A stretch of DNA of 64,000 nt from an uncultured Bacilli bacterium. GTDB lineage: Bacteria > Bacillota_I > Bacilli_A > ML615J-28 > CAG-313. A program made the position numbers and the translations under genes. The notes beneath the pieces are model-generated. The model was given only the letters and a program-made list of their open reading frames with translations. It had not been told where the DNA came from and searched no databases. Numbering within the stretch: the first letter of the stretch is position 1; each line of letters starts with the position of its first letter. Where the stretch lies: positions 121,184 to 185,183 of the forward strand of contig CALVCV010000001.1 in the NCBI GenBank assembly GCA_944326155.1, given 5' to 3'. Shown here piece after piece: positions 15,991-33,738 of the stretch.

Positions 15991-17646
15991 TTAAAACATA
16001 TCATTTTTTTTTGGATTTATACTTGATTGTTCACTTTCAGTCATTTGTAATAGAGTCATTCGCAGAATAATACTTTTGTATAATAGATAACCTTCAACTT
16101 CATGATTTAATAAATCAAATCTTTGATAACCTAAATATTTTTTAGAATATTCGCTTTCTTGATCTAAGAAAATTTTATATTGAAATAAATTTAATAAGTT
16201 TTGATATTTTAAAGTTGTATCATTTAAATGAAAAATAAAAAAATAACCATAAGTTGTTGTCACTTCTATCATATACATAATTTTTTCTAACAATTTACTA
16301 TCAGTCAAAATTTTTTCACAACCAGTAATAATAATTAGTTCGTAACTTATTTTGGTCGAATTTTTGCGATTGTATTCTTCAATCGTTGAAATATTTAAGG
16401 TATTAAATTTATTAATTCGTTCACTTACTTTCACCAAAATATGATCTAATTCACCAATATCAGTGCTAGTGGCAAAATTACTACTTTTTAGTAAATCAAT
16501 ATAGTAATATTTGATATTGGATTTATAATACATCATAGCAAGAATTAAGCTATCAATATAAAGGCTTACCCTTTTAATATTACTTCCAAAAATAACAAGT
16601 CTTGTATTGGTCGCATCAAGAGCTACTAATTCATTTCTATCATCAATGCCAAAGATGATTTCATTATCTGATATATTTTGTAATTCATATATTCTTAAAG
16701 GTGTAGGAACTAAATTATTGATTTCTACTAATAATTCTTTTGTATTTTCGTCTTTTTTTAGTTGGAAATTGTGAATGTAATTTTTTAAATTTCTGTCAAA
16801 AACCTCATAACTAAAGTTATAATGAGAATTAATAAAATAAACTGTAATATTGCGACAAATAAGATATGTGATGTCATTGTAAAAAACATTCATACTATTT
16901 AAAACTTTTTTAATGGTATCAACATTTCTTTTGGCAAATTCAAATTCACGGCTATAATATTCAGTACTATTTACTTTGCTAATTTTAAATTTTATTTTGG
17001 TTTTGGTATATGATTTATCATATTCATCTACTTTATTTTTTAAATTCTTGGTTATTTTTTTATAGGAAAAATAAATTTTTTTACCAAAATCAATTATCAT
17101 TTTAATGAAATCTTTTATCGTTTTTTTACAGATGAAAACAATACCTAAAAAAAATAATAAGATGCTAATAAAAATAACTCCTATTTCTGATAATAAATAA
17201 TAACATAGATAAAATAAAATTGCTCCAATAATACCGCCACCACTAATAGAATCAGCACTTTCAGTACTAAAACTATTAACATATAATTTTATTGTTGTAA
17301 CTAAAATATTTCCTTCATACGATTTAAGATAGCGATGCATACTAAAATGTGATAAAAGAATTAAAGATAAAATCATCATAAAAATTCCTAAATAGCGAAT
17401 ATTATTAATTTTTAATCTAGTATGCACAATGATACATCGAATTGCATATAGTATCATAAGTAAAAAAATTAAAAAATACCAATCACCAAATAAGACTTTT
17501 GTAATAAGCATTAAATATTGGCCTACTAGACCCATTTTAGAAATAGCCAACATTGATAATACCAATAGTACGATACCTAAAATTTCATAATGAAAAAGTC
17601 TTTCTTTTTCTTTAATTCCAATATTTTGTACTTTTTCTTTTGCCAT
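15991..17646 (-). CDS. FtsK/SpoIIIE-family membrane protein with degenerate ATPase motifs (predicted pseudo-translocase)
   Basis: 551 aa. The N-terminal 4-TM domain aligns to the SpoIIIE/FtsK N-terminus: FHYEILGIVLLVLSMLAISKMGLVGQY, FGDWYFLIFLLMILYAI, SGGGIIGAILF. The C-terminal region aligns to the motor core, but Walker A reads LVIFGSNIKRVS and Walker B reads YELIIITGCEKIL. There is no gamma domain. Confidence 0.6.
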   Translation of the reverse strand: MAKEKVQNIGIKEKERLFHYEILGIVLLVLSMLAISKMGLVGQYLMLITKVLFGDWYFLIFLLMILYAIRCIIVHTRLKINNIRYLGIFMMILSLILLSHFSMHRYLKSYEGNILVTTIKLYVNSFSTESADSISGGGIIGAILFYLCYYLLSEIGVIFISILLFFLGIVFICKKTIKDFIKMIIDFGKKIYFSYKKITKNLKNKVDEYDKSYTKTKIKFKISKVNSTEYYSREFEFAKRNVDTIKKVLNSMNVFYNDITYLICRNITVYFINSHYNFSYEVFDRNLKNYIHNFQLKKDENTKELLVEINNLVPTPLRIYELQNISDNEIIFGIDDRNELVALDATNTRLVIFGSNIKRVSLYIDSLILAMMYYKSNIKYYYIDLLKSSNFATSTDIGELDHILVKVSERINKFNTLNISTIEEYNRKNSTKISYELIIITGCEKILTDSKLLEKIMYMIEVTTTYGYFFIFHLNDTTLKYQNLLNLFQYKIFLDQESEYSKKYLGYQRFDLLNHEVEGYLLYKSIILRMTLLQMTESEQSSINPKKNDMF

Positions 17647-24195: not shown

Positions 24196-24284
24196 TGAAT
24201 CACCATTCTTTCACAATTATTATAACAAAAAAAAGAAAAAATATAAAGCAATTAACTAATTTGTCGTTAAAATTATCATTTTTT

Positions 24285-24334
24285 TTGACAATATAACAAT
24301 GTTATGGTAAAATGTTTAGTGTAACATTGTTACA
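24285..24334 (+). promoter_or_regulatory. sigma-A promoter with two related palindromic operator candidates
   Basis: -35 TTGACA 24285..24290, 17-nt spacer, extended -10 TGgTAAAAT 24305..24313. Palindrome ATAACA-a-TGTTAT (24293..24305) lies inside the spacer. Palindrome TGTAACA-t-TGTTACA (24320..24334) lies between the -10 and the RBS AAAGAGG. Confidence 0.6.
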
Positions 24335-24346
24335 AAGAGGTATATT

Positions 24347-24955
24347 ATGATTTCAAAAAAAGATTTACTTATTAAAACAAATATTTCGTATGGTCAACTA
24401 TATCGGTGGAAACGTCAAGGGTTAATTCCTGAAGAATGGTTTGTTAAAACTAGTTCTATAACAGGACAAGTTACTTTCTTTGATGAAGATTTAATAATAC
24501 CTAGAATCCAAAAAATCTTAGATTTAAAAGATGAATTTTCTATTGATGAAATCAAACAAATTTTAAACCCTTCGCCAAGCGAAATTACCTTTTCCCTCAG
24601 TAAACTAAATAAATTACAATGCTTTGATGGACGAATTTTAAAAAAACTTGTTGATCATGAAACCGATTTGAATATTAACGAAGTAGTAATTTTGTACGCT
24701 TTATCTAAAGCACGAAAGGATATTGAAAAACATTTTTATAAAATTAAATTTGATATTACACTTTCTGAATTTAAAAATTTTGATTTTACTAACGCGAAAA
24801 TGGCACTTATTTCTAAAAAAAGAGAAGGATATATTCTTTTTTTCAATGATTCATTGATTGCTTCAGATAGTGAACTTGAAATCAAACATTATAATTTAAG
24901 TGATTTACAACAAGAACTTTTAGAAATTATTCGCAAATTATCTTATCGAAATTAA
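24347..24955 (+). CDS. YhbD-like protein with an N-terminal MerR-type helix-turn-helix (DUF4004-like)
   Basis: 202 aa. N-terminal KKDLLIKTNISYGQLYRWKRQGLIPEEWF resembles a MerR-type HTH. Followed by a bactofilin-like gene, as in the Bacillus yhbD-yhbE-yhbF arrangement. The family name is recalled from memory. Confidence 0.45.
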   Translation: MISKKDLLIKTNISYGQLYRWKRQGLIPEEWFVKTSSITGQVTFFDEDLIIPRIQKILDLKDEFSIDEIKQILNPSPSEITFSLSKLNKLQCFDGRILKKLVDHETDLNINEVVILYALSKARKDIEKHFYKIKFDITLSEFKNFDFTNAKMALISKKREGYILFFNDSLIASDSELEIKHYNLSDLQQELLEIIRKLSYRN

Positions 24956-24964
24956 GGAGGCAAT

Positions 24965-25660
24965 ATGGAAGATTTAAAAATTAGTGGTTATGGTAAAGCA
25001 AATGGAGGCAATTTTAAAAAAATCGTCATTACAGGCTTTGGCGAAATTTTTGAGGATGCAATTTGTAGCGACTTTCATGGTTCTGGTTCAGTTAAAATTC
25101 GTGGCAAATTACAAACTGAAAATTTAAAATATAATGGGGATGTCAGTGTCGATAATAATCTAATTACAAATACTTGTGATGTCACAGGTAAACTTAGTGT
25201 AAAAGGAAATATTATATCAAATAATATTTCGATATTCGGTGATATAGGTATTCTTGGCAATTGTAGCAACAGCAATTTCATTAAAATAAATGGAAATTTA
25301 TCATGTTATGGTAATATTACTTGTGAAAGTTTTAAATTAAATGGAGGATCAATTTCTATTAATGAAGAATTATGTGCTGAAATAGTCGAAATTAAAAGCA
25401 CACAAATTGATATAAATGAAATTCATGCTACCAATGTTGTAATTAGCAAACCATTTATCCTTAGTATGAAGAAAAAGCACATAAATATTAATGAAATTGA
25501 ATGTACATCAATTGTTGCTGCTCAGTTAAACTGTAAAAAACTATGTGCACAAAATGTAAAATTATCAAAGAACTGTATTGTAGATACATTAGAATATAGT
25601 GGAAACCTAGACCTTGAAGATGGCTGCATCATAAAAGAACTCATTAAAATTGAAAAATAG
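24965..25660 (+). CDS. bactofilin-like polymer-forming cytoskeletal protein (YhbE/YhbF-like)
   Basis: 231 aa of repetitive beta-helix-type segments: G.V.V.N..I.G...V.GK. Asn/Gly/Ile/Val-rich periodicity. GGAGG RBS. Confidence 0.55.
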   Translation: MEDLKISGYGKANGGNFKKIVITGFGEIFEDAICSDFHGSGSVKIRGKLQTENLKYNGDVSVDNNLITNTCDVTGKLSVKGNIISNNISIFGDIGILGNCSNSNFIKINGNLSCYGNITCESFKLNGGSISINEELCAEIVEIKSTQIDINEIHATNVVISKPFILSMKKKHININEIECTSIVAAQLNCKKLCAQNVKLSKNCIVDTLEYSGNLDLEDGCIIKELIKIEK

Positions 25661-25685
25661 TTATGATAACATAACTATTTTTTTT
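25658..25685. terminator. bidirectional intrinsic terminator
   Basis: Hairpin TAGTTATG-ataa-CATAACTA followed by T8. Overlaps the convergent gene ends. Confidence 0.7.
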
Positions 25686-26317
25686 ATCTGATCTTCATAA
25701 TCTTTTTCGCTATAGGAAATTTTAAAAATTTCAACATCTGCTTGTTTTTTAAAATCATGCTTTGGAAAATCACATAAATATAATTTTTTTATATTACTAG
25801 AAAAATCTAAATTAAAATTTGGATTACTACTAAATAAATAAAGTTTTTCATGATATTTAAGCATAATTTCAATTAAATAACTTTTTTTATCATCTAACAG
25901 TTTAGCACCATAACATATAGTAAAGATATTTTGATATTGAGTAAGTAAGAAAAAATATAAATTAATAGCTAATAAAAAAGTTTCATATATAAAATATTGC
26001 AAATGAAAATTTTGATGAAAATGAAGAATAATAAACTCTTTTTTATAAATAATTTTATCAATTACACCAATATTTAAATAAGCTTTTAGTAATTCAAATA
26101 GATAACTGAGTTTATTAAACTCAATGGTTTCAATATGAATGATACCTGTTGTATCACGAAAATAACTAATTTCTTTTTTACAAATAATTTCTTTAACTAA
26201 ATATCGCCACATAAAAGGATATTTTTTTAAATATTGATAAGAATATTTTAAAAATTTTTCATCAACTGGTGATTGTTCAATAGAAGTTATGATATAGTTT
26301 TTATCAATTATTGTCAT
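25661..26317 (-). CDS. hypothetical protein
   Basis: 218-aa ORF. No motif recognised. The start codon immediately follows the rnj terminator. Confidence 0.4.
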   Translation of the reverse strand: MTIIDKNYIITSIEQSPVDEKFLKYSYQYLKKYPFMWRYLVKEIICKKEISYFRDTTGIIHIETIEFNKLSYLFELLKAYLNIGVIDKIIYKKEFIILHFHQNFHLQYFIYETFLLAINLYFFLLTQYQNIFTICYGAKLLDDKKSYLIEIMLKYHEKLYLFSSNPNFNLDFSSNIKKLYLCDFPKHDFKKQADVEIFKISYSEKDYEDQIKKIVMLS

Positions 26318-28096: not shown

Positions 28097-29479
28097 TCAT
28101 GATTTATCTATTCTTTTATTCTTATAAGGCTTACGAAATAACTGATTTAACAATGCTTTAAAATAAAACGGGATAAAAGGATATAAATAAGGTTTGCCAA
28201 AACTTTTTAATAACGACAAATAGAGTAGTAAAAAGGTAAGACTTAAGACTAGCCCGTAAATGCCAAAACAAAATACCATTAAAATGATGACTAATTTAAC
28301 AATTTTATTTGCCAAACTTAATTCATAACTTGGTGTGATATATGAACCTATTGCACTGATTGCGCCAAGTAAAACAATTTGTTCAGAAATTATACCAATA
28401 TCAATTGCCATTTCACCTATTATTATTCCTGCTATAATACCCATCGATGTAGATAAGGCATCAGGAGTATGAATTGATGCCATTCGAATAAATTCTATTC
28501 CAAGTTCCATTATCAGTAATTGGATAAAAATAGCCAAATGATTATTTTCTACTTCAAAAATTTTACCAAAATAAGTAAAATGAAAATTTTCGTATTGTAA
28601 AAAAGTAAACCAAAGTGGCACTGCTAAAAAAGATAAAATAATACCGATAAAACGAATAAAACGTAAATATGAACCAGATATCAATGTTTGTCTAAATTCT
28701 TCAGCATGCTGCATATGGTCAAAAATAGAAACTGGACCTAAAATAGCACTGGGTGATGTATCTACTATAATACCAAACATGCCTTGATATAAGTGTGAAG
28801 CAAAGGTATCCGGACGCTCTGTATATTTTACCAAAGGATATGGAGTATATGCATTTTTGATTAATAATTCTTCTAATGCTTTATCACTCATCGTTAGTTC
28901 ATCTACTTTTACATCTTCCAGTCGCTTTTTAATTTCGTTTAAATATTTTGAATTTACATAATCTTCAATATAAACCAAAGCAATATTTGTTTTACTAATT
29001 TTTCCTATCGTGTAATTAATAATTTTAAGATTTCCACTTTTTATACGTCTTCTTAAAAGGCCAATATTAATAGCAATATTTTCGGTAAAACCATCTCTAC
29101 TTCCTCTCACAACTTTTTCGCCATCTGGCTCCTCAATACCACGTGATGGATAATTTCTTACTTCTGCTATAATAGCACGTGGATCATCATCGACAAAAAT
29201 TGCTACATTACCATATAAGATAGCATCATAAATTAGTTCATAATTTTTTTCTATTGTAATACTTTCGTTTAATAATACTTTAGCAATTTGATCTATACCT
29301 AAAGTTGAGGTGTAGTTATCTAAACTATATATAATATGAATTACACCTTCGCTTTTTATTAAAAAATTTAAAAATACAAGCGTATAATTATGATATGAAG
29401 TCTCAATTTCTCGAAATGTAACATCAAATGATTCCTTATATGATAAGTCTTTTTTTAGTTTTTCAACGTATGCATTCAT
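28097..29479 (-). CDS. spoVAF: stage V sporulation protein AF (GerA-family A-subunit paralogue)
   Basis: 460 aa. GerAA-like soluble N-domain plus C-terminal TM bundle. It sits last in the spoVA operon. Confidence 0.7.
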   Translation of the reverse strand: MNAYVEKLKKDLSYKESFDVTFREIETSYHNYTLVFLNFLIKSEGVIHIIYSLDNYTSTLGIDQIAKVLLNESITIEKNYELIYDAILYGNVAIFVDDDPRAIIAEVRNYPSRGIEEPDGEKVVRGSRDGFTENIAINIGLLRRRIKSGNLKIINYTIGKISKTNIALVYIEDYVNSKYLNEIKKRLEDVKVDELTMSDKALEELLIKNAYTPYPLVKYTERPDTFASHLYQGMFGIIVDTSPSAILGPVSIFDHMQHAEEFRQTLISGSYLRFIRFIGIILSFLAVPLWFTFLQYENFHFTYFGKIFEVENNHLAIFIQLLIMELGIEFIRMASIHTPDALSTSMGIIAGIIIGEMAIDIGIISEQIVLLGAISAIGSYITPSYELSLANKIVKLVIILMVFCFGIYGLVLSLTFLLLYLSLLKSFGKPYLYPFIPFYFKALLNQLFRKPYKNKRIDKS

Positions 29480-29480
29480 A

Positions 29481-29831
29481 CTATCCTCGAGGTTTACAAA
29501 CTAAAGCGATAAGAAAAGAAAAGAAAATTGCAGCAGCAATACCTGTTGAAGTTAAATCAAAAATTCCTGTAAATAATCCCAAATAATCAGTGTTCATAGC
29601 TCCTTCTACTGCAGCATGAGTCAAAGAATGACCAAAACTTGCAATTGGCATTAGGGCACCTGCCCCTGCAAAAGCAATAATTTTATCATATAGTTGAAAT
29701 GCTTCTAAAACAGAACCCAAAACAACGAATAAAACGACTAACTGAGCAGGCAATAATTTAAAAATATCCATACATAGTTGTGCTAAAAGGCAGACCAATC
29801 CACCAAATAAAAAAGCATATAAAAAAATCAT
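29481..29831 (-). CDS. spoVAE: stage V sporulation protein AE (AEb-like)
   Basis: 116-aa membrane protein of SpoVAEb size, between spoVAD and spoVAF. Confidence 0.75.
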   Translation of the reverse strand: MIFLYAFLFGGLVCLLAQLCMDIFKLLPAQLVVLFVVLGSVLEAFQLYDKIIAFAGAGALMPIASFGHSLTHAAVEGAMNTDYLGLFTGIFDLTSTGIAAAIFFSFLIALVCKPRG

Positions 29832-30841
29832 TGTTTGCTCCTTTCTAGAGAAATTGCATGTGCGATAGCTGGAATTGTTTCACCTTGCGCAATCATAATA
29901 GGATTCATTAAAGCTCCCGTTGCAATTAATAAAACTTTACGATAAATACCTTTTTTGAGTGCATCTACAATATATCCCATGGAAACAAGACTAATACATC
30001 CACTACCGCTTCCACCCGCAAAAACCTCTTGATTTTCTAAATCATATAGCATCTTACCTGCATCATTATGATTAGTTGTTACGTTATAATTAAATTCTTT
30101 CATAATTTGTAAAAAAACTTCTGAACCATATTTAGATAAATCACCTGTTAAAATTAAATCATACTCATTGATATCAATTTCAAAATCTTCTAAATGTTGT
30201 TTCAGTGTCATTGCAGCAGCTGGAGCCATGGTTCTACCCATATCTTGAGTATCTGATAGTTCAGGATCAATAATTCTACCGATAGTTGCTCTTCTAATCT
30301 TTATGGGTGATGCAACACTAGACAAGATAGCTACTCCTGCACCTGTTGCAGTAAAAGTCATGGAATTTGGTTTTTGGCCACCATATTCAGTAGGATATCT
30401 AAATTGTCTTTCGCTTGTTGAATTGTGACTTGAGCTGACGACAAGAACATTTTCACCGAATTCCCCGTCAACTAACAATGATCCCACAATTAATGCTTCC
30501 GTACATGTTGAACATGCACTATATACTCCGAGATAGGGAATATTGAAGTCTCTTGAAGCATAGTTTGTTGCCACAATTTGATTATTTAAATCTCCTCCTA
30601 CAATAGCTTTCATATCATCAATTTTAAGTCCCAATTTTTTTAAAGCGCATAAAATGGCATCTTTTTGTAAGCGAATCTCTGCTTTTTCCCAACTTTCTTC
30701 CCCACAATATGAGTTTTCATAACTATCATCAAAATATTTACCTAGTGGACCTTTTCTTTCTCTTGGCCCAGAAATAGTTGCCGATGAACGTAAAAATACA
30801 TTATTAAATTCTATACTATTTTTTCCTCTTGCAAACATCAA
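29828..30841 (-). CDS. spoVAD: stage V sporulation protein AD
   Basis: 337 aa, thiolase/KAS-like fold, conserved position. Confidence 0.8.
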   Translation of the reverse strand: MMFARGKNSIEFNNVFLRSSATISGPRERKGPLGKYFDDSYENSYCGEESWEKAEIRLQKDAILCALKKLGLKIDDMKAIVGGDLNNQIVATNYASRDFNIPYLGVYSACSTCTEALIVGSLLVDGEFGENVLVVSSSHNSTSERQFRYPTEYGGQKPNSMTFTATGAGVAILSSVASPIKIRRATIGRIIDPELSDTQDMGRTMAPAAAMTLKQHLEDFEIDINEYDLILTGDLSKYGSEVFLQIMKEFNYNVTTNHNDAGKMLYDLENQEVFAGGSGSGCISLVSMGYIVDALKKGIYRKVLLIATGALMNPIMIAQGETIPAIAHAISLERSKQ

Positions 30842-30842
30842 A

Positions 30843-31331
30843 TCACCTAAATAAATAAATTACGTTTCCGACAATAAAAGCACTAAGCACTCCTGCAACA
30901 ATTACCGCTCCCGCAAGTTTAAACATATTAGACATTATCCCTAAAATAATACCTTCACTTTTACTTTCTAATGCTGATGAAGTCATCGAATTAGCAAAGC
31001 CAGTAATTGGAATGATAGTACCAGCACCTGAAAATTGACCAATTTTATCAAAGATACCAATTCCTGTTAAAAGGCTTGTTATACCTACAATCACAATATA
31101 CATCAAACTTATTGCTTTATCTTTTTCAATATTCAGTAAATCTTTAAAAAACCATAATATTCCTTGTGCAAATAAACAAATTGTACCACCTACAAGAAAT
31201 GCTTTAATAGAATTTAAAAAGATAGGTCTTTTAATAGTATTTCTATCCAATACTTTTTTAAAAATACTTTTTTCCATGAAATTACTTCCTTTCATGTTTT
31301 TAGTATTAGTATTTTTTACCATTGTATACAA
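30843..31331 (-). CDS. spoVAC: stage V sporulation protein AC
   Basis: 162 aa, 4 TM segments, glycine-rich GAGTIIPITGFANS. The ORF-track start is a TTG; the in-frame ATG is at 31322. Confidence 0.8.
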   Translation of the reverse strand: MYTMVKNTNTKNMKGSNFMEKSIFKKVLDRNTIKRPIFLNSIKAFLVGGTICLFAQGILWFFKDLLNIEKDKAISLMYIVIVGITSLLTGIGIFDKIGQFSGAGTIIPITGFANSMTSSALESKSEGIILGIMSNMFKLAGAVIVAGVLSAFIVGNVIYLFR

Positions 31332-31343
31332 AAAAGTGAAAAT

Positions 31344-31649
31344 TTACTTTTCACTTTTTGAAATTGTGGTTGTAGTTTGAATAAATTCCCATGTTTCATC
31401 ATATTGAATATCAACTTTTCGCAAACTTTTTTTTATTGCTTGCAAGATAATTGGAATAGCAAATTTTGCAAAATTGCAATTTTTTTGTAAATCATATAAT
31501 CTAACCGCTTGAATTAATCCTCTAAACCCAGCTTGTAACAAAATTTCTCTATTTTGATATGGAACATTCATCTTATCCACTAATAGATAAACTAAAATTA
31601 GATTCTCATTGATGATATACTCATAATTATGATAGTTCCATCTGTTCAT
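31344..31649 (-). CDS. sigF: truncated sigma-F-like protein (sigma region 2 only, 101 aa); possible pseudogene
   Basis: It aligns to SigF/SigG region 2.1-2.4: ILVYLLVDKM..., LLQAGFRGLIQAVRLYDLQKNCNFAKFAIPIILQAIKK. It overlaps spoIIAB by 23 nt, as native sigF does. It stops 12 nt before spoVAC. Regions 3 and 4 are absent. Confidence 0.6.
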   Translation of the reverse strand: MNRWNYHNYEYIINENLILVYLLVDKMNVPYQNREILLQAGFRGLIQAVRLYDLQKNCNFAKFAIPIILQAIKKSLRKVDIQYDETWEFIQTTTTISKSEK

Positions 31650-32064
31650 TATACTTTTTCACCATTAATACTTTTGTTCCTTCATTTAGTTTTGATTTCA
31701 CCTCTAGTTTATCCGTAAAAACCTCCATAATTGTAAATCCTAATCCAGCTCTTTCTTCTTCTAATTTAGTTGAAAAAAGAGGTTCTCTTGCTTTTTCAAC
31801 ATCTTCAATTCCCACTCCGTCGTCGATTACTTCAATATAAATATTTTTGGCATCATATGATAAATTTAATTGTACATATTTATTTTCATTAGATAGACAA
31901 CCATGTACAATGGCATTTGTTACAGCTTCAGAAATAACTGTTTTTACCTCATTTAGAAAATTAAGTGGTAAGTCTAGCCCTACTAAAAATCCCACTCCTA
32001 CGGTTCTTGCTAACATGACATTATCTACTTTTGCCAAAAAGGATGTTCTAATTTCATTATACAT
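31627..32064 (-). CDS. spoIIAB: anti-sigma F factor (serine kinase SpoIIAB)
   Basis: 145 aa. Close match to the B. subtilis SpoIIAB pattern: EIKTVISEAVTNAIVHG, GVGIEDVEKAREPLFSTK, GLGFTIMEVFTD. Confidence 0.85.
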   Translation of the reverse strand: MYNEIRTSFLAKVDNVMLARTVGVGFLVGLDLPLNFLNEVKTVISEAVTNAIVHGCLSNENKYVQLNLSYDAKNIYIEVIDDGVGIEDVEKAREPLFSTKLEEERAGLGFTIMEVFTDKLEVKSKLNEGTKVLMVKKYNEQMELS

Positions 32065-32414
32065 TACATTACCTCCACAATTTTAGCTGCCTCTGTTTCG
32101 TTTGCAGCAACACTACAAATTTTTTTTAGCCCTGACAAATTAAAAATTCGCTCAATTAGTCGATTCATTGAACAAATTACAATTCTACCATTTCTTCTTC
32201 TTACCTGCGAATACCTTCCGATTATAAAACCTACACCACTACTATCCATAAAATTTAATTTTTCAAAATTAAATATTAAATATTTTATCTCATATTTGTC
32301 TATTAGTTCACTTATCCTAATTTTCAATTTTTCAGTTACTGCTTGATCCAATTCCCCATTTAAGCGAACAAATAACATATTTTTTCTAATTGACATTTGT
32401 ATATTGACTGACAT
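32064..32414 (-). CDS. spoIIAA: anti-sigma F factor antagonist (STAS domain SpoIIAA)
   Basis: ORF track gives 32064..32606. Trimmed to MSVNIQMSIRKNMLFVRLNGELD at 32414, with a GGAGGGG RBS. STAS motif FMDSSGVGFIIGRY carries the phosphorylatable Ser. Confidence 0.8.
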   Translation of the reverse strand: MSVNIQMSIRKNMLFVRLNGELDQAVTEKLKIRISELIDKYEIKYLIFNFEKLNFMDSSGVGFIIGRYSQVRRRNGRIVICSMNRLIERIFNLSGLKKICSVAANETEAAKIVEVM

Positions 32415-32535
32415 CTTATCCCCCTCCATTAAAATTTTAACATAAATTATTACTTGATACAAAAAGAATTGATTACCAAAAATAAAGCTCTCATAAAACG
32501 ACATTTTATTAAGGGCTTTATTTATCAAAAAATAT

Positions 32536-32576
32536 ATAAAAACAGAGTTTTTTGTATAATAAACTCTGTTTTTATT
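32536..32576 (-). terminator. intrinsic terminator after dacF
   Basis: Hairpin AAAACAGAGTT-ttttgtataataa-AACTCTGTTTT (32538..32572) followed by a U-run on the minus strand. Confidence 0.65.
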
Positions 32577-32577
32577 A

Positions 32578-33738
32578 TCATAATATCTTAGAAAATATAA
32601 TTGCAAATAATTCTAAAAAATTACTCTTTTTAACTTTTTCTTTTAACTCTAAATCAATAATTTTATATAGTTTATCATCAATATAAACGTATAGCTTACC
32701 TATTTTTTGTCCTTCACCACTAGTAATTTTTTGATCATCAATTCTAATTTCGTAGTTAATTATGCCATCTTTAGCATTTTTCTCAATCATCCTTGCGATG
32801 TCTTGCGATAAAACGATATTATAGATAGATGGATTCATTAAAATATTTTCTTCTGTTTGTACGATTGAACCTTTTGGACTAATTAATTGTTTTTCGAAAT
32901 TAGCAAAAGTATAGTTTAACAAATTGATGGTATCTTGATTACGACCATCAACTGTAGGAGCACCCATGACAACTGAAATAATACGCATTCCATTTGCTTT
33001 TTTAGTAGCTACAAGACAATATCCTGCTTGATTTGTCCACCCTGTCTTGAGACCATCAATTTCATTTTTTCCTTTAATCAATTTGTTCGTGTTGACAAGC
33101 CAAAAAGGCTTATCAGTGTCTTTTCGTAAATAAGTTTCATACATTGACGATAGAGGGATAATCTCATCACCATATTTTGCAAGCAATTCTCTAGCAATGA
33201 TTGAAAGATCATGTGCTGTAGTAACATGACCTTCTTCATGAAGACCTGTTGCATTTAAATAATGTGTATTTTTCATACCCAGATTAATTGCTTCCTCGTT
33301 CATTTTCTTAACAAATAGTTCCTCAGTACCTGCAACAGCTTCTGCTAGTGCTACTGCAGCATCATTGGCAGAAGCAATAACAACAGCTTTTAGCAAATCA
33401 TCAACTGTCATTTGTTCATTTGGTGCCAAATAGATTTGACTACCTCCCATAGAAGAGGCATATTCTGAAGTGGTAATCAGTTGATCATGCTTTAATTTTC
33501 CATCATGAATGGCATCCATAATTAACTTAATTGTCATAATTTTAGTTGTACTTGCAGGAAATCTTACTTCATCCATCTTATATTCATATAGAATGTCACC
33601 CGTATCTAACTCAATAACAATACCACTTTTTGCTGATTTTAATAAATTGTCTTCTGCATGAACCCAAATTTTATTACAAAATATCATTACCAAAAATACA
33701 ATAACTATGAGTAAACCTTTTTTACATCCTTTTTTCAC
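32578..33738 (-). CDS. dacF: D-alanyl-D-alanine carboxypeptidase (PBP5-like; DacF by position)
   Basis: 386 aa. Signal peptide, SxxK motif ASTTKIMT, and SxN/KTG-type motifs. It lies immediately upstream of spoIIAA, as in Bacillus. Confidence 0.85.
   Translation of the reverse strand: MKKGCKKGLLIVIVFLVMIFCNKIWVHAEDNLLKSAKSGIVIELDTGDILYEYKMDEVRFPASTTKIMTIKLIMDAIHDGKLKHDQLITTSEYASSMGGSQIYLAPNEQMTVDDLLKAVVIASANDAAVALAEAVAGTEELFVKKMNEEAINLGMKNTHYLNATGLHEEGHVTTAHDLSIIARELLAKYGDEIIPLSSMYETYLRKDTDKPFWLVNTNKLIKGKNEIDGLKTGWTNQAGYCLVATKKANGMRIISVVMGAPTVDGRNQDTINLLNYTFANFEKQLISPKGSIVQTEENILMNPSIYNIVLSQDIARMIEKNAKDGIINYEIRIDDQKITSGEGQKIGKLYVYIDDKLYKIIDLELKEKVKKSNFLELFAIIFSKIL

Follow-up and report, generated by a model that had tools for sequence, protein, structure and literature searches.

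A conserved palindrome as a candidate operator of the YhbD/BacR (DUF4004)-bactofilin operon

Promoter, genes and putative terminator of the operon

We analyzed a 64,000-nt stretch of DNA from an uncultured Bacilli bacterium, hereafter called the window, in which two genes on the + strand lie behind one promoter. The -35 hexamer TTGACA (24285-24290, + strand), located by sequence reading and a promoter scan, is separated by a 17-bp spacer (24291-24307) from the -10 hexamer TAAAAT (24308-24313), which a TG at 24305-24306 extends to TGgTAAAAT (24305-24313, + strand). The element spanning 24285-24313 was the top match in the 2.6 kb scanned, with 11 of 12 positions in agreement in addition to the TG, and it reproduces base for base the TTGACA-17-TGgTAAAAT promoter of the original prediction. 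Judged from its sequence, this near-consensus sigma-A promoter almost certainly drives both genes, which encode a DUF4004 regulator and a bactofilin-like protein.

Two related inverted repeats had been predicted, one in the spacer and one between the -10 element and the ribosome-binding site, and both were found there. The first, ATAACAaTGTTAT (candidate operator O1, 24293-24305, strandless), has its dyad centre at 24299, the exact centre of the spacer; its outer positions are A, where the consensus described below has G. The second, TGTAACAtTGTTACA (candidate operator O2, 24320-24334, strandless), lies 28 bp downstream, centre to centre, and abuts the ribosome-binding site AAGAGG (24335-24340, + strand), which stands 6 nt ahead of the ATG of ORF1 at 24347. 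The predicted transcription start falls at about 24319-24321, and O2 spans from there to about +15. Within the 64-kb window, the shared core TAACANTGTTA matched twice, at O1 and O2, where 0.29 matches were expected; two matches were reached in 3 of 100 shuffled windows. O1 and O2 were also the only two sites of the motif AACANTGTT in the window.

ORF1 (24347-24955, + strand; 202 aa) encodes a regulator of the DUF4004/YhbD/BacR family with a predicted N-terminal MerR-type winged helix-turn-helix (HTH) and a variable C-terminal domain. After a gap of 9 nt it is followed by ORF2 (24965-25660, + strand; 231 aa), which encodes a bactofilin-like beta-helix protein of the YhbE/BacE/Cap0036 type and whose ribosome-binding site, AAGGAGG (24954-24960, + strand), overlaps the ORF1 stop codon. 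The pair ends in a predicted terminator-like hairpin with A-run and T-run flanks (25652-25685, strandless), whose stem covers 25652-25683 with an A-run ahead and a T-run to 25685. It overlaps both stop codons, including the last codons of a convergent ORF, and its folding (-12.5 kcal/mol, z -5.2 on the + strand; -11.9 kcal/mol, z -6.0 on the - strand) agrees with the bidirectional terminator proposed at the outset. Because the stem has only two G-C pairs, it was missed by a consensus terminator scan. No Rfam family matched the region at E <= 1, and the whole window had a single tRNA match. The locus is an ordinary orthologue, in an uncultured low-GC spore-former, of an operon already known as Cap0037/Cap0036 (2016, PMC5050335) and BacR/BacE/BacF (2026, PMC13649987).

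The ORF1 product scored 135 bits (E 5.6e-39) with the DUF4004 model (PF13171), whose cut-off is 27. Its N-terminus, MISKKDLLIKTNISYGQLYRWKR, fits the HTH signature of the family, ISKK.LL..T.ISYGQLYRWKR, and its 202 residues compare with about 200 in a typical member. In the DUF4004 alignment, 30 invariant columns lie within the first 61 residues, and the HTH region is nearly invariant, like the candidate operator described below. Fold comparison of the structure model pointed to a winged HTH of the MerR type, as expected of the YhbD-like MerR-type protein originally proposed, and the MerR relationship was visible only at this level. In the monomer model, the wing is followed by a 14-residue helix (47-60) and several short helices, and the C-terminal domain gave no structural match in the fold comparison. 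Against PDB sequences, a profile of the DUF4004 alignment gave only weak, Lrp/AsnC-like matches (E > 0.2). A search of both proteins against NCBIfam returned nothing meaningful.

The assignment of ORF2 to the bactofilins, also part of the original prediction, held for its family and its modelled fold but not for its own Pfam score, which at 25.7 bits (PF04519, DUF583; E 1.4e-5; residues 35-129) is below the gathering score of 27.9. Likewise, none of five close relatives carried a precomputed Pfam match. This reflects the detection threshold rather than a structural feature of the protein. An exhaustive search gave 871 full-length homologues (a word-indexed protein search gave 3 relatives), and PF04519 was matched by 49 of 50 sampled homologues, with a best E of 1.7e-12. 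End-to-end alignments were obtained with Bacillus licheniformis YhbE (E 6e-16, identity only 25%) and Cap0036 (E 6e-11), and the family profile matched BacA (2n3d; E 0.0013). The AlphaFold model is a right-handed beta-helix that superposes on BacA, with essentially its entire 231-residue length ordered and no low-confidence tails, and so departs from the canonical plan of a core of about 110 residues with disordered tails or a membrane-targeting peptide. Since the YhbE/YhbF/Cap0036 subgroup shares the full-length helix and a similar length, ORF2 belongs with this long form and not with the canonical architecture. By its sequence relatives and predicted structure, ORF2 is a divergent bactofilin-like beta-helix protein of the YhbE/BacE type.

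Recurrence of the palindrome upstream of DUF4004 genes

To follow the palindromes beyond the window, we compared DUF4004 loci from 80 genomes, 70 orthologous promoters and metagenomes; all counts are raw and ignore the kinship of the genomes. The regions upstream of DUF4004 genes, 19.5 kb in all, contained the motif AACANTGTT 108 times, and 452 kb of flanking sequence contained it 32 times, an enrichment of about 78-fold in raw counts, and 73 of the 80 loci had at least one upstream site. The original prediction had named absence of the palindromes from orthologous promoters as the observation that would count against it; they are present in nearly all. Across the 70 promoters the O1-type consensus is TTgACAacGtAACAaTGTTATGTTAcAnT, with the dyad in the middle of a 17-bp spacer that separates TTGACA/TTTACA from TAnnnT. 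A -35 of TTGACA or TTTACA stands at the same position in 49 of them, and the spacer has the optimal length of 17 bp in nearly all. The cores of both O1 and O2 are invariant in seven syntenic relatives (DUF4004 protein identity 64-75%).

The mid-spacer palindrome was found in chromosomal loci of both Bacilli and Clostridia as well as on the plasmid pSOL1. A scan of 92 kb of this plasmid gave a single copy, at the CA_P0037 promoter, and none at the sol or adc promoters. A bactofilin-like gene directly follows the DUF4004 gene at 76 of 78 loci, with two such genes at 28, and the two loci that have no bactofilin neighbour (L049 and L077) also have no palindrome in the 120 nt upstream. Among metagenomes, 83 exact matches to GTAACANTGTTAYGTTA were found, of which 39 adjoin DUF4004 and bactofilin genes, all in a promoter context. 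The other 44 have no DUF4004 gene nearby and most have no promoter context; the majority look like chance matches in a very large collection, and four belong to a TetR/ABC-transporter operon (L095, L114, L117 and L152) in which a larger palindrome contains the same string. A wider regulon, considered through this reverse motif search, gains no support from these 44 matches.

The palindrome is unreported in either experimental paper on the gene pair (PMC5050335, PMC13649987), and searching the literature with the palindrome strings brought up nothing but unrelated primers and sequences. Conserved in both location and sequence in Bacilli as well as Clostridia, the palindrome therefore offers a concrete operator candidate for the DUF4004 family. 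Comparative sequence evidence suggests that the palindrome, recurring upstream of the DUF4004-bactofilin pair across Firmicutes, is probably the family's unreported operator.

A second upstream site, with the consensus aacaaAACAaTGTTACGtta, was seen at 43 places in the upstream regions, and 33-35 loci, depending on the search span, had at least two upstream sites. The second copy takes one of two positions: it is upstream at 35 loci and intragenic, at +270 of the ORF, at 23 others, and no locus has both (Fisher p 2e-8, kinship ignored). The O1-O2 spacing ranges from 22 to 52 bp, mostly 28-36, and because of this variation strict helical phasing is not conserved. The mutually exclusive positions of the second copy suggest that two operators are required in DUF4004 operons. 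An intragenic candidate in the ORF1 of the window near +270, TTACAATGCTT, was rejected: it has three mismatches, its frame differs, and the closest relative lacks it.

Proposed autorepression and its alternatives

Little is understood of how bactofilins, which are widespread cytoskeletal proteins, are regulated. DUF4004 proteins (Cap0037, BacR) form the one dedicated family of bactofilin regulators, and the two experimental papers disagree on the sign of their effect (PMC5050335, PMC13649987). Our comparison suggests a need for two operators and offers a simple explanation of the conflicting result from Bacillus subtilis. With a probability of roughly 70%, we read the locus as an autoregulated two-gene YhbD/BacR-bactofilin operon, in which a DUF4004 dimer binds both palindromes, most likely represses transcription and is relieved by the bactofilin. 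From the comparative data, we infer that the winged-helix ORF1 product would bind both (G/A)TAACA-N-TGTTA(C/T) palindromes as a dimer. Occupancy of O1 and O2 would most likely be repressive, since the promoter should work unaided by an activator and O2 extends over the start site; repression could proceed by occlusion or distortion of the spacer at O1 together with a block at +1 by O2. Regulator and bactofilin would thereby come under joint negative autoregulation, as reported genetically for Cap0037, whose insertion mutant derepressed its own operon 50-68-fold (PMC5050335). BacR is a dimer, and experiments with Geobacillus and B. subtilis proteins showed that bactofilins bind it and block its DNA binding (PMC13649987). 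By analogy, the bactofilin here may bind the regulator and remove it from DNA, and operator occupancy would then signal the amount of regulator free of bactofilin.

Several observations sit less easily with autorepression, namely the MerR-type mid-spacer dyad, the varied O1-O2 spacing, the non-consensus A in O1, the published site data for Cap0037 and BacR, and the fall in yhbDEF mRNA upon yhbD deletion.

Classically, a MerR-family protein whose dyad lies in mid-spacer is an activator, and MerR-type activation corrects an over-long spacer of 19-20 bp by realignment. The same protein on the same palindromes might activate when bound at the mid-spacer dyad, on the face opposite RNA polymerase, with sequestration by the bactofilin as negative feedback, a model proposed for B. 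subtilis BacR that we consider unlikely here. It would suit the modelled MerR-type fold, the exactly spacer-centred dyad and the weaker -35 elements of some Bacillales promoters (TTTCCA and TTAACA), and it draws on the loss of yhbDEF mRNA by log2 5-7 (about 30-150-fold) upon yhbD deletion, which the authors read as a positive effect (PMC13649987). However, the spacer is 17 bp rather than 19-20 bp in nearly all promoters, the promoter in the window is near consensus, O2 covers the start site, and Cap0037 represses its own operon (PMC5050335). The deletion result may itself be open to another reading. Members of the B. subtilis group have the palindromic promoter inside a long, mis-annotated yhbD ORF, at positions +23 to +51; the BacR paper uses this long form, as its R39/S41 numbering indicates, and its deletion came from the BKK library (PMC13649987). 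If that deletion removed the annotated ORF, the promoter would have been removed with it, mimicking the loss of an activator.

The palindromes could also be operators of some other regulator, in which case the DUF4004 protein itself would bind DNA in the manner described by the two published studies, at AT-rich sites or without specificity. The only footprint published for the DUF4004 family, that of Cap0037, is the AT-rich, non-palindromic ATATTTTCATATAAAT, which lies about 100 bp upstream of the palindrome (PMC5050335; 2327-2342 of locus L084). For BacR, sequence-specific binding was not found, and unrelated DNA (hag, murF) was bound with similar efficiency (PMC13649987). The TetR/ABC-transporter palindrome that contains the same string is a further point in favor of another regulator. 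Against this, the palindrome accompanies the DUF4004 gene in different phyla and on a plasmid, where its single occurrence is at the CA_P0037 promoter, and it is absent where the bactofilin partner is absent. Moreover, the published promoters are BPROM predictions, one inside cspR and the other about 100 bp upstream, and the protein reached 1.4 uM in footprinting and 2-16 uM in EMSAs, concentrations that make non-specific AT-rich binding plausible. We therefore regard another regulator as improbable. Least probable of all is that the palindromes arose by chance in AT-rich DNA or form an RNA hairpin in the 5' leader. The statistics of the window alone are modest, as the shuffles indicate, and a 6-bp RNA stem is possible at O2, but its folding (-3.6 kcal/mol, z 0) is no better than that of shuffled sequence, O1 lies upstream of the transcript, and Rfam gave no match. 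Conservation across the 80 genomes and 39 metagenome contigs, a comparative sequence pattern, already contradicts this reading.

Comparison with known regulatory systems

The BacR (YhbD)-BacE-BacF operon of B. subtilis and Geobacillus thermodenitrificans has the same order, with the DUF4004 regulator first and a bactofilin-like gene directly after, and BacR shares the N-terminal HTH signature of ORF1. The promoters of B. licheniformis, B. tequilensis and G. icigianus carry the same mid-spacer palindrome but lack the O2-like leader operator of the window, and the BacR operon has two bactofilin genes where the window has one. Membrane foci, a vancomycin response and a flagellar role (2015, PMC4627819) are known for B. 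subtilis only. In the BacR work a positive effect was proposed and no specific site was found, in contrast to the repression through palindromes favored here.

Cap0037-Cap0036 on pSOL1 of Clostridium acetobutylicum is likewise a two-gene DUF4004 and bactofilin-like operon, for which autorepression was shown genetically (PMC5050335). Its likely promoter, TTGCAA-17-TATATT (2422-2450 of L084), carries CGTAACAATGTTATG in mid-spacer, as O1 does in the window. It differs in that Cap0037 is plasmid-borne and a reported global regulator (PMC5050335), in the location of the second palindrome copy, at +270 within the gene instead of in the leader, and in its published binding motif, which is ATATTTTCATATAAAT rather than the palindrome.

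A broader reading joins these observations, and we hold it as possible though short of probable. Throughout the DUF4004/BacR family, GTAACA-N-TGTTAC would serve as the specific operator, one that both experimental studies overlooked, and would be bound by a MerR-fold dimer with its dyad in mid-spacer of an optimal 17-bp promoter. A second operator would be needed, either at 28-36 bp downstream or, at a distance of about 325 bp, in the regulator's own coding sequence. The system would be autorepressed with a filament protein as anti-repressor, and the B. subtilis 'activator' phenotype would be due to the loss, in a library deletion, of a promoter concealed within a mis-annotated ORF.

With the promoters of canonical MerR, CueR, SoxR and BmrR, the system shares the winged-HTH fold and the spacer-centred dyad, and a dimer is reported for BacR. 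In contrast to them, the window has a 17-bp instead of a 19-20-bp spacer and a second operator; the ORF1 monomer model shows a helix of only about 14 residues after the wing and no long antiparallel coiled-coil helix, and its C-terminal domain is unrelated. By analogy with BacR, the effector would apparently be a protein, the bactofilin, rather than the small ligand of the canonical family.

In GlnR and TnrA, the MerR-family nitrogen regulators of Bacillales, the DNA-binding domain is short and lacks a coiled coil. Repression by GlnR involves two adjacent operators, and a protein partner controls its activity. The C-terminal region, protein partner and regulon of GlnR/TnrA all differ from those of the DUF4004 system. 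Their half-site pentamers, TGTNA/TNACA, resemble TGTTA/TAACA, but the half-sites in the window are inside-out and closer together, TAACA-N1-TGTTA as against TGTNA-N7-TNACA.

Regulator, bactofilin-like protein and promoter

ORF1 (24347-24955, + strand; 202 aa) is YhbD-like, as originally predicted: it scored 135 bits against the DUF4004/YhbD Pfam model (cut-off 27), and sequence and comparison establish a MerR-type fold. In an alignment of 18 relatives, with identity down to 32%, 30 of the first 61 positions were invariant. The invariant N-terminal pattern in this alignment was ISKK..LL....ISYGQLYRWKR..LIP..WF.K, and the C-terminal two thirds varied freely; structure comparison found no match for the C-terminal domain of ORF1. 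ORF2 (24965-25660, + strand; 231 aa) follows after a gap of 9 nt, with AAGGAGG ahead of it. Its proposed identity as a bactofilin was supported. ORF2 itself reached 25.7 bits against the Pfam Bactofilin model, slightly below the cut-off of 27.9, but 49 of 50 sampled homologues matched PF04519, and end-to-end alignments were obtained with YhbE of B. licheniformis (25% identity, E = 6e-16) and Cap0036 of C. acetobutylicum (26% identity, E = 6e-11). Word-indexed search recovered three relatives and exhaustive search 871 homologues, most of which were full-length proteins of about 240 aa. We class ORF2 among the YhbE/BacE-type bactofilin-like proteins, as a divergent member of the long form.

Sequence and comparison further establish that a strong sigma-A promoter drives this bicistronic operon. 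The best-scoring promoter of the region (24285-24313, + strand; 11 of 12 positions plus TG) consists of a -35 TTGACA (24285-24290), a 17-bp spacer, an extended -10 element TG (24305-24306) and a -10 TAAAAT (24308-24313). The sequence is exactly as originally described, with one palindrome in the spacer and another between the -10 and the ribosome-binding site. The former, O1 (ATAACAaTGTTAT, 24293-24305), has its dyad centre at 24299, the exact centre of the spacer. The latter, O2 (TGTAACAtTGTTACA, 24320-24334), begins near the predicted start site and reaches +15, directly followed by AAGAGG and the ATG at 24347. The core common to both, TAACANTGTTA, had no other copy in the 64 kb, where 0.29 matches were expected by chance and two occurred in 3 of 100 shuffles. 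AACANTGTT was likewise confined to O1 and O2 within the window, and a search for GTAACANTGTTAC with up to two mismatches added only two unrelated sites, which is chance level. We regard O1 and O2 as DNA sites because O2 as RNA folded no better than shuffled sequence and an Rfam search gave no match for the O1/O2 region.

The hairpin predicted to end the gene pair on both strands (25652-25683) was recovered, with folding energies of -12.5 and -11.9 kcal/mol on the two strands (z = -5.2 and -6.0) and an A-run and a T-run at its flanks. The two stop codons that it overlaps belong to ORF2 and a convergent 218-aa ORF (25661-26317, - strand). The stop codon of the convergent ORF directly adjoins the ORF2 stop codon, and the hairpin takes in the last codons of this ORF. 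Pfam and NCBIfam gave no match for the convergent ORF; four of five close relatives have a counterpart of 211-221 aa at the conserved neighbourhood position.

A conserved putative operator tied to the DUF4004 gene

We compared 80 DUF4004 loci, one genome per species, from Bacilli and Clostridia plus a few other MAGs. The motif occurred within 120 nt upstream of the DUF4004 gene in nearly all of them. AACANTGTT was enriched 78-fold upstream (108 copies in 19.5 kb, versus 32 in the remaining 452 kb), and 73 of 80 loci had at least one such site. Across 70 promoters the consensus was TTgACAacGtAACAaTGTTATGTTAcAnT, and the dyad centre fell in the middle of the 17-bp spacer between the -35 (TTGACA in 30, TTTACA in 19) and a TAnnnT -10. 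A second site, aacaaAACAaTGTTACGtta, was mostly located 28-36 bp downstream of the first, often adjoining the Shine-Dalgarno sequence. The window and seven syntenic relatives share the gene order era-cdd-ybeY-phoH / DUF4004-bactofilin / orf / rnj (protein identity 64-75%); both palindrome cores were invariant in these relatives, and the adjacent non-coding DNA had diverged. The palindromes, whose absence from orthologous promoters would have spoken against the original prediction, are thus widely present, and sequence and comparison establish both the conservation of the putative operator and its link to the DUF4004 gene.

A bactofilin-like gene lay directly 3' of the DUF4004 gene in 76 of 78 loci, and two such genes were found in 28. 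The two DUF4004 genes without a downstream bactofilin gene (L049 and L077) had no palindrome within 120 nt upstream either, and are possibly paralogues with another role. In the reverse direction, exact GTAACANTGTTAYGTTA matches were collected from metagenome contigs: 39 of 83 adjoined DUF4004 and bactofilin genes, every one in promoter context, and the remaining matches had no such context. Four of the 83 came from a TetR-family/ABC-transporter operon (L095, 1862-1900; L114, L117, L152), in which a larger palindrome, TAACATAACAGTGTTACG..CGTAACACTGTTATGTTA, contains the same string; this was rejected as an unrelated look-alike operator.

In 23 loci, including Paenibacillus, Fictibacillus, Thermoanaerobacterium and C. 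acetobutylicum, a further AACATTGTT marked a putative third operator position, located inside the DUF4004 ORF at exactly 270 nt, in codons N-I-V (for example 3271-3279 in L028, L074 and L082, and 2771-2779 in L084, the C. acetobutylicum pSOL1 locus). Synonymous positions were fixed, AAC-ATT-GTT being used by 23 of the 24 loci with N-I-V there, while the Arg codon just before it varied freely in its third base. Among 82 loci, 35 had at least two upstream sites, 23 one upstream plus the intragenic site, 19 a single site and five none. The intragenic site thus occurred in 0 of 35 loci with at least two upstream sites versus 23 of 42 loci (Fisher p = 2e-8, relatedness of loci ignored). From this mutual exclusion, the DUF4004 family seems to need two operators, which can be arranged in either of two ways; the close-pair layout is the one found in the window, which lacks the intragenic site. 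Such a need could explain why the binding of BacR (YhbD) to long fragments was better than to a 42-bp probe (PMC13649987).

Published systems and the sign of regulation

The locus is a further example of a known operon type. Cap0037 of pSOL1 is a DNA-binding regulator whose insertion mutant derepressed its own operon with Cap0036 50-68-fold; its footprint, ATATTTTCATATAAAT, lies near a BPROM-predicted -10 (Nguyen et al. 2016, PMC5050335). We located this footprint at L084 2327-2342, about 100 bp upstream of a palindromic promoter (TTGCAA-17-TATATT, 2422-2450, 36 nt ahead of the annotated ATG) that carries CGTAACAATGTTATG in mid-spacer. Over the 92 kb of pSOL1 covered, this was the only copy of the 11-bp palindrome core, and the promoter regions of sol and adc had none.

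YhbD of B. subtilis, renamed BacR, forms a dimer whose DNA binding is blocked when BacE and BacF bind to it; on bactofilin depletion or vancomycin treatment it leaves membrane foci for the nucleoid (Velten et al. 2026, PMC13649987). The authors of that paper state that specific binding could not be shown, and assigned the yhbDEF promoter to the inside of the upstream gene cspR. The palindrome is mentioned in neither PMC5050335 nor PMC13649987, and a text search for the string gave nothing relevant; this strongly conserved, apparently unreported putative operator bears directly on an open question in the 2026 paper. The B. licheniformis promoter is TTTCCA-17-TACAAT with TGTAACAGTGTTATG. In B. 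tequilensis (L211; B. subtilis group), TTAACA-17-TACAAT (1523-1551) lies 3' of the trmL/cspR terminator, 23-51 nt into the long 238-aa yhbD annotation (start 1501) and ahead of the conserved start MDEQLISKK at 1576, in agreement with the rise in transcription that the 2026 paper notes downstream of the first annotated ATG (PMC13649987).

We propose that a DUF4004 dimer would bind O1 and O2. Although the sign of regulation is less certain, repression is favoured on three grounds: the promoter has an optimal spacer and comes close to the consensus, the start site is covered by O2, and Cap0037 represses its own operon. The main rival, MerR-like activation through the palindromes, is opposed by the 17-bp spacer. 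Deletion of yhbD, taken from the BKK library, lowered yhbDEF mRNA by log2 5-7 (PMC13649987); the residue numbers in that paper, R39 and S41 in the HTH, show that it follows the long annotation, which has 25 extra codons. The palindromic promoter of the B. subtilis group, as read in L211, lies within these extra codons. BKK deletions reportedly span the annotated ORF; if so, the promoter of yhbE and yhbF was removed as well, and the mRNA drop, read as a "positive" BacR effect, may be an artefact. Under repression, the bactofilin would relieve regulation, by analogy with in vitro data from Geobacillus.

Organism and neighbourhood

The low-GC organism is a walled spore-former, since genes for SpoVAD, a GerA/SpoVAF-type protein and a D-Ala-D-Ala carboxypeptidase lie at 28097-33738. 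Yet the closest genome with a name (L004, 69% identity) carries the label Anaeroplasma bactoclasticum MAG, and one relative that of Staphylococcus sp.; neither label seems reliable. No flagellar genes were seen among the 10 neighbouring ORFs scanned. The DUF4004-bactofilin pair is also present in MAGs labelled as wall-less, non-flagellated lineages (L006, Acholeplasmataceae; L014, Haloplasma contractile); if these labels are right, the pair must have a role beyond flagella and peptidoglycan stress.

At 24219-24247 (- strand), the seven clade members all share a conserved block, TATTATAnCAAA...AAAAATATAAAGTAA. It matches a promoter in divergent orientation, TTTATA-17-TATAAT with TG, presumably that of the phoH-ybeY-cdd-era-recO gene string. 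A 551-aa ORF (15991-17646, - strand) had no Pfam match at E <= 1e-5. All except five of the 51 window ORFs of at least 180 aa lie on the - strand, and the DUF4004-bactofilin pair is among the few + strand units.
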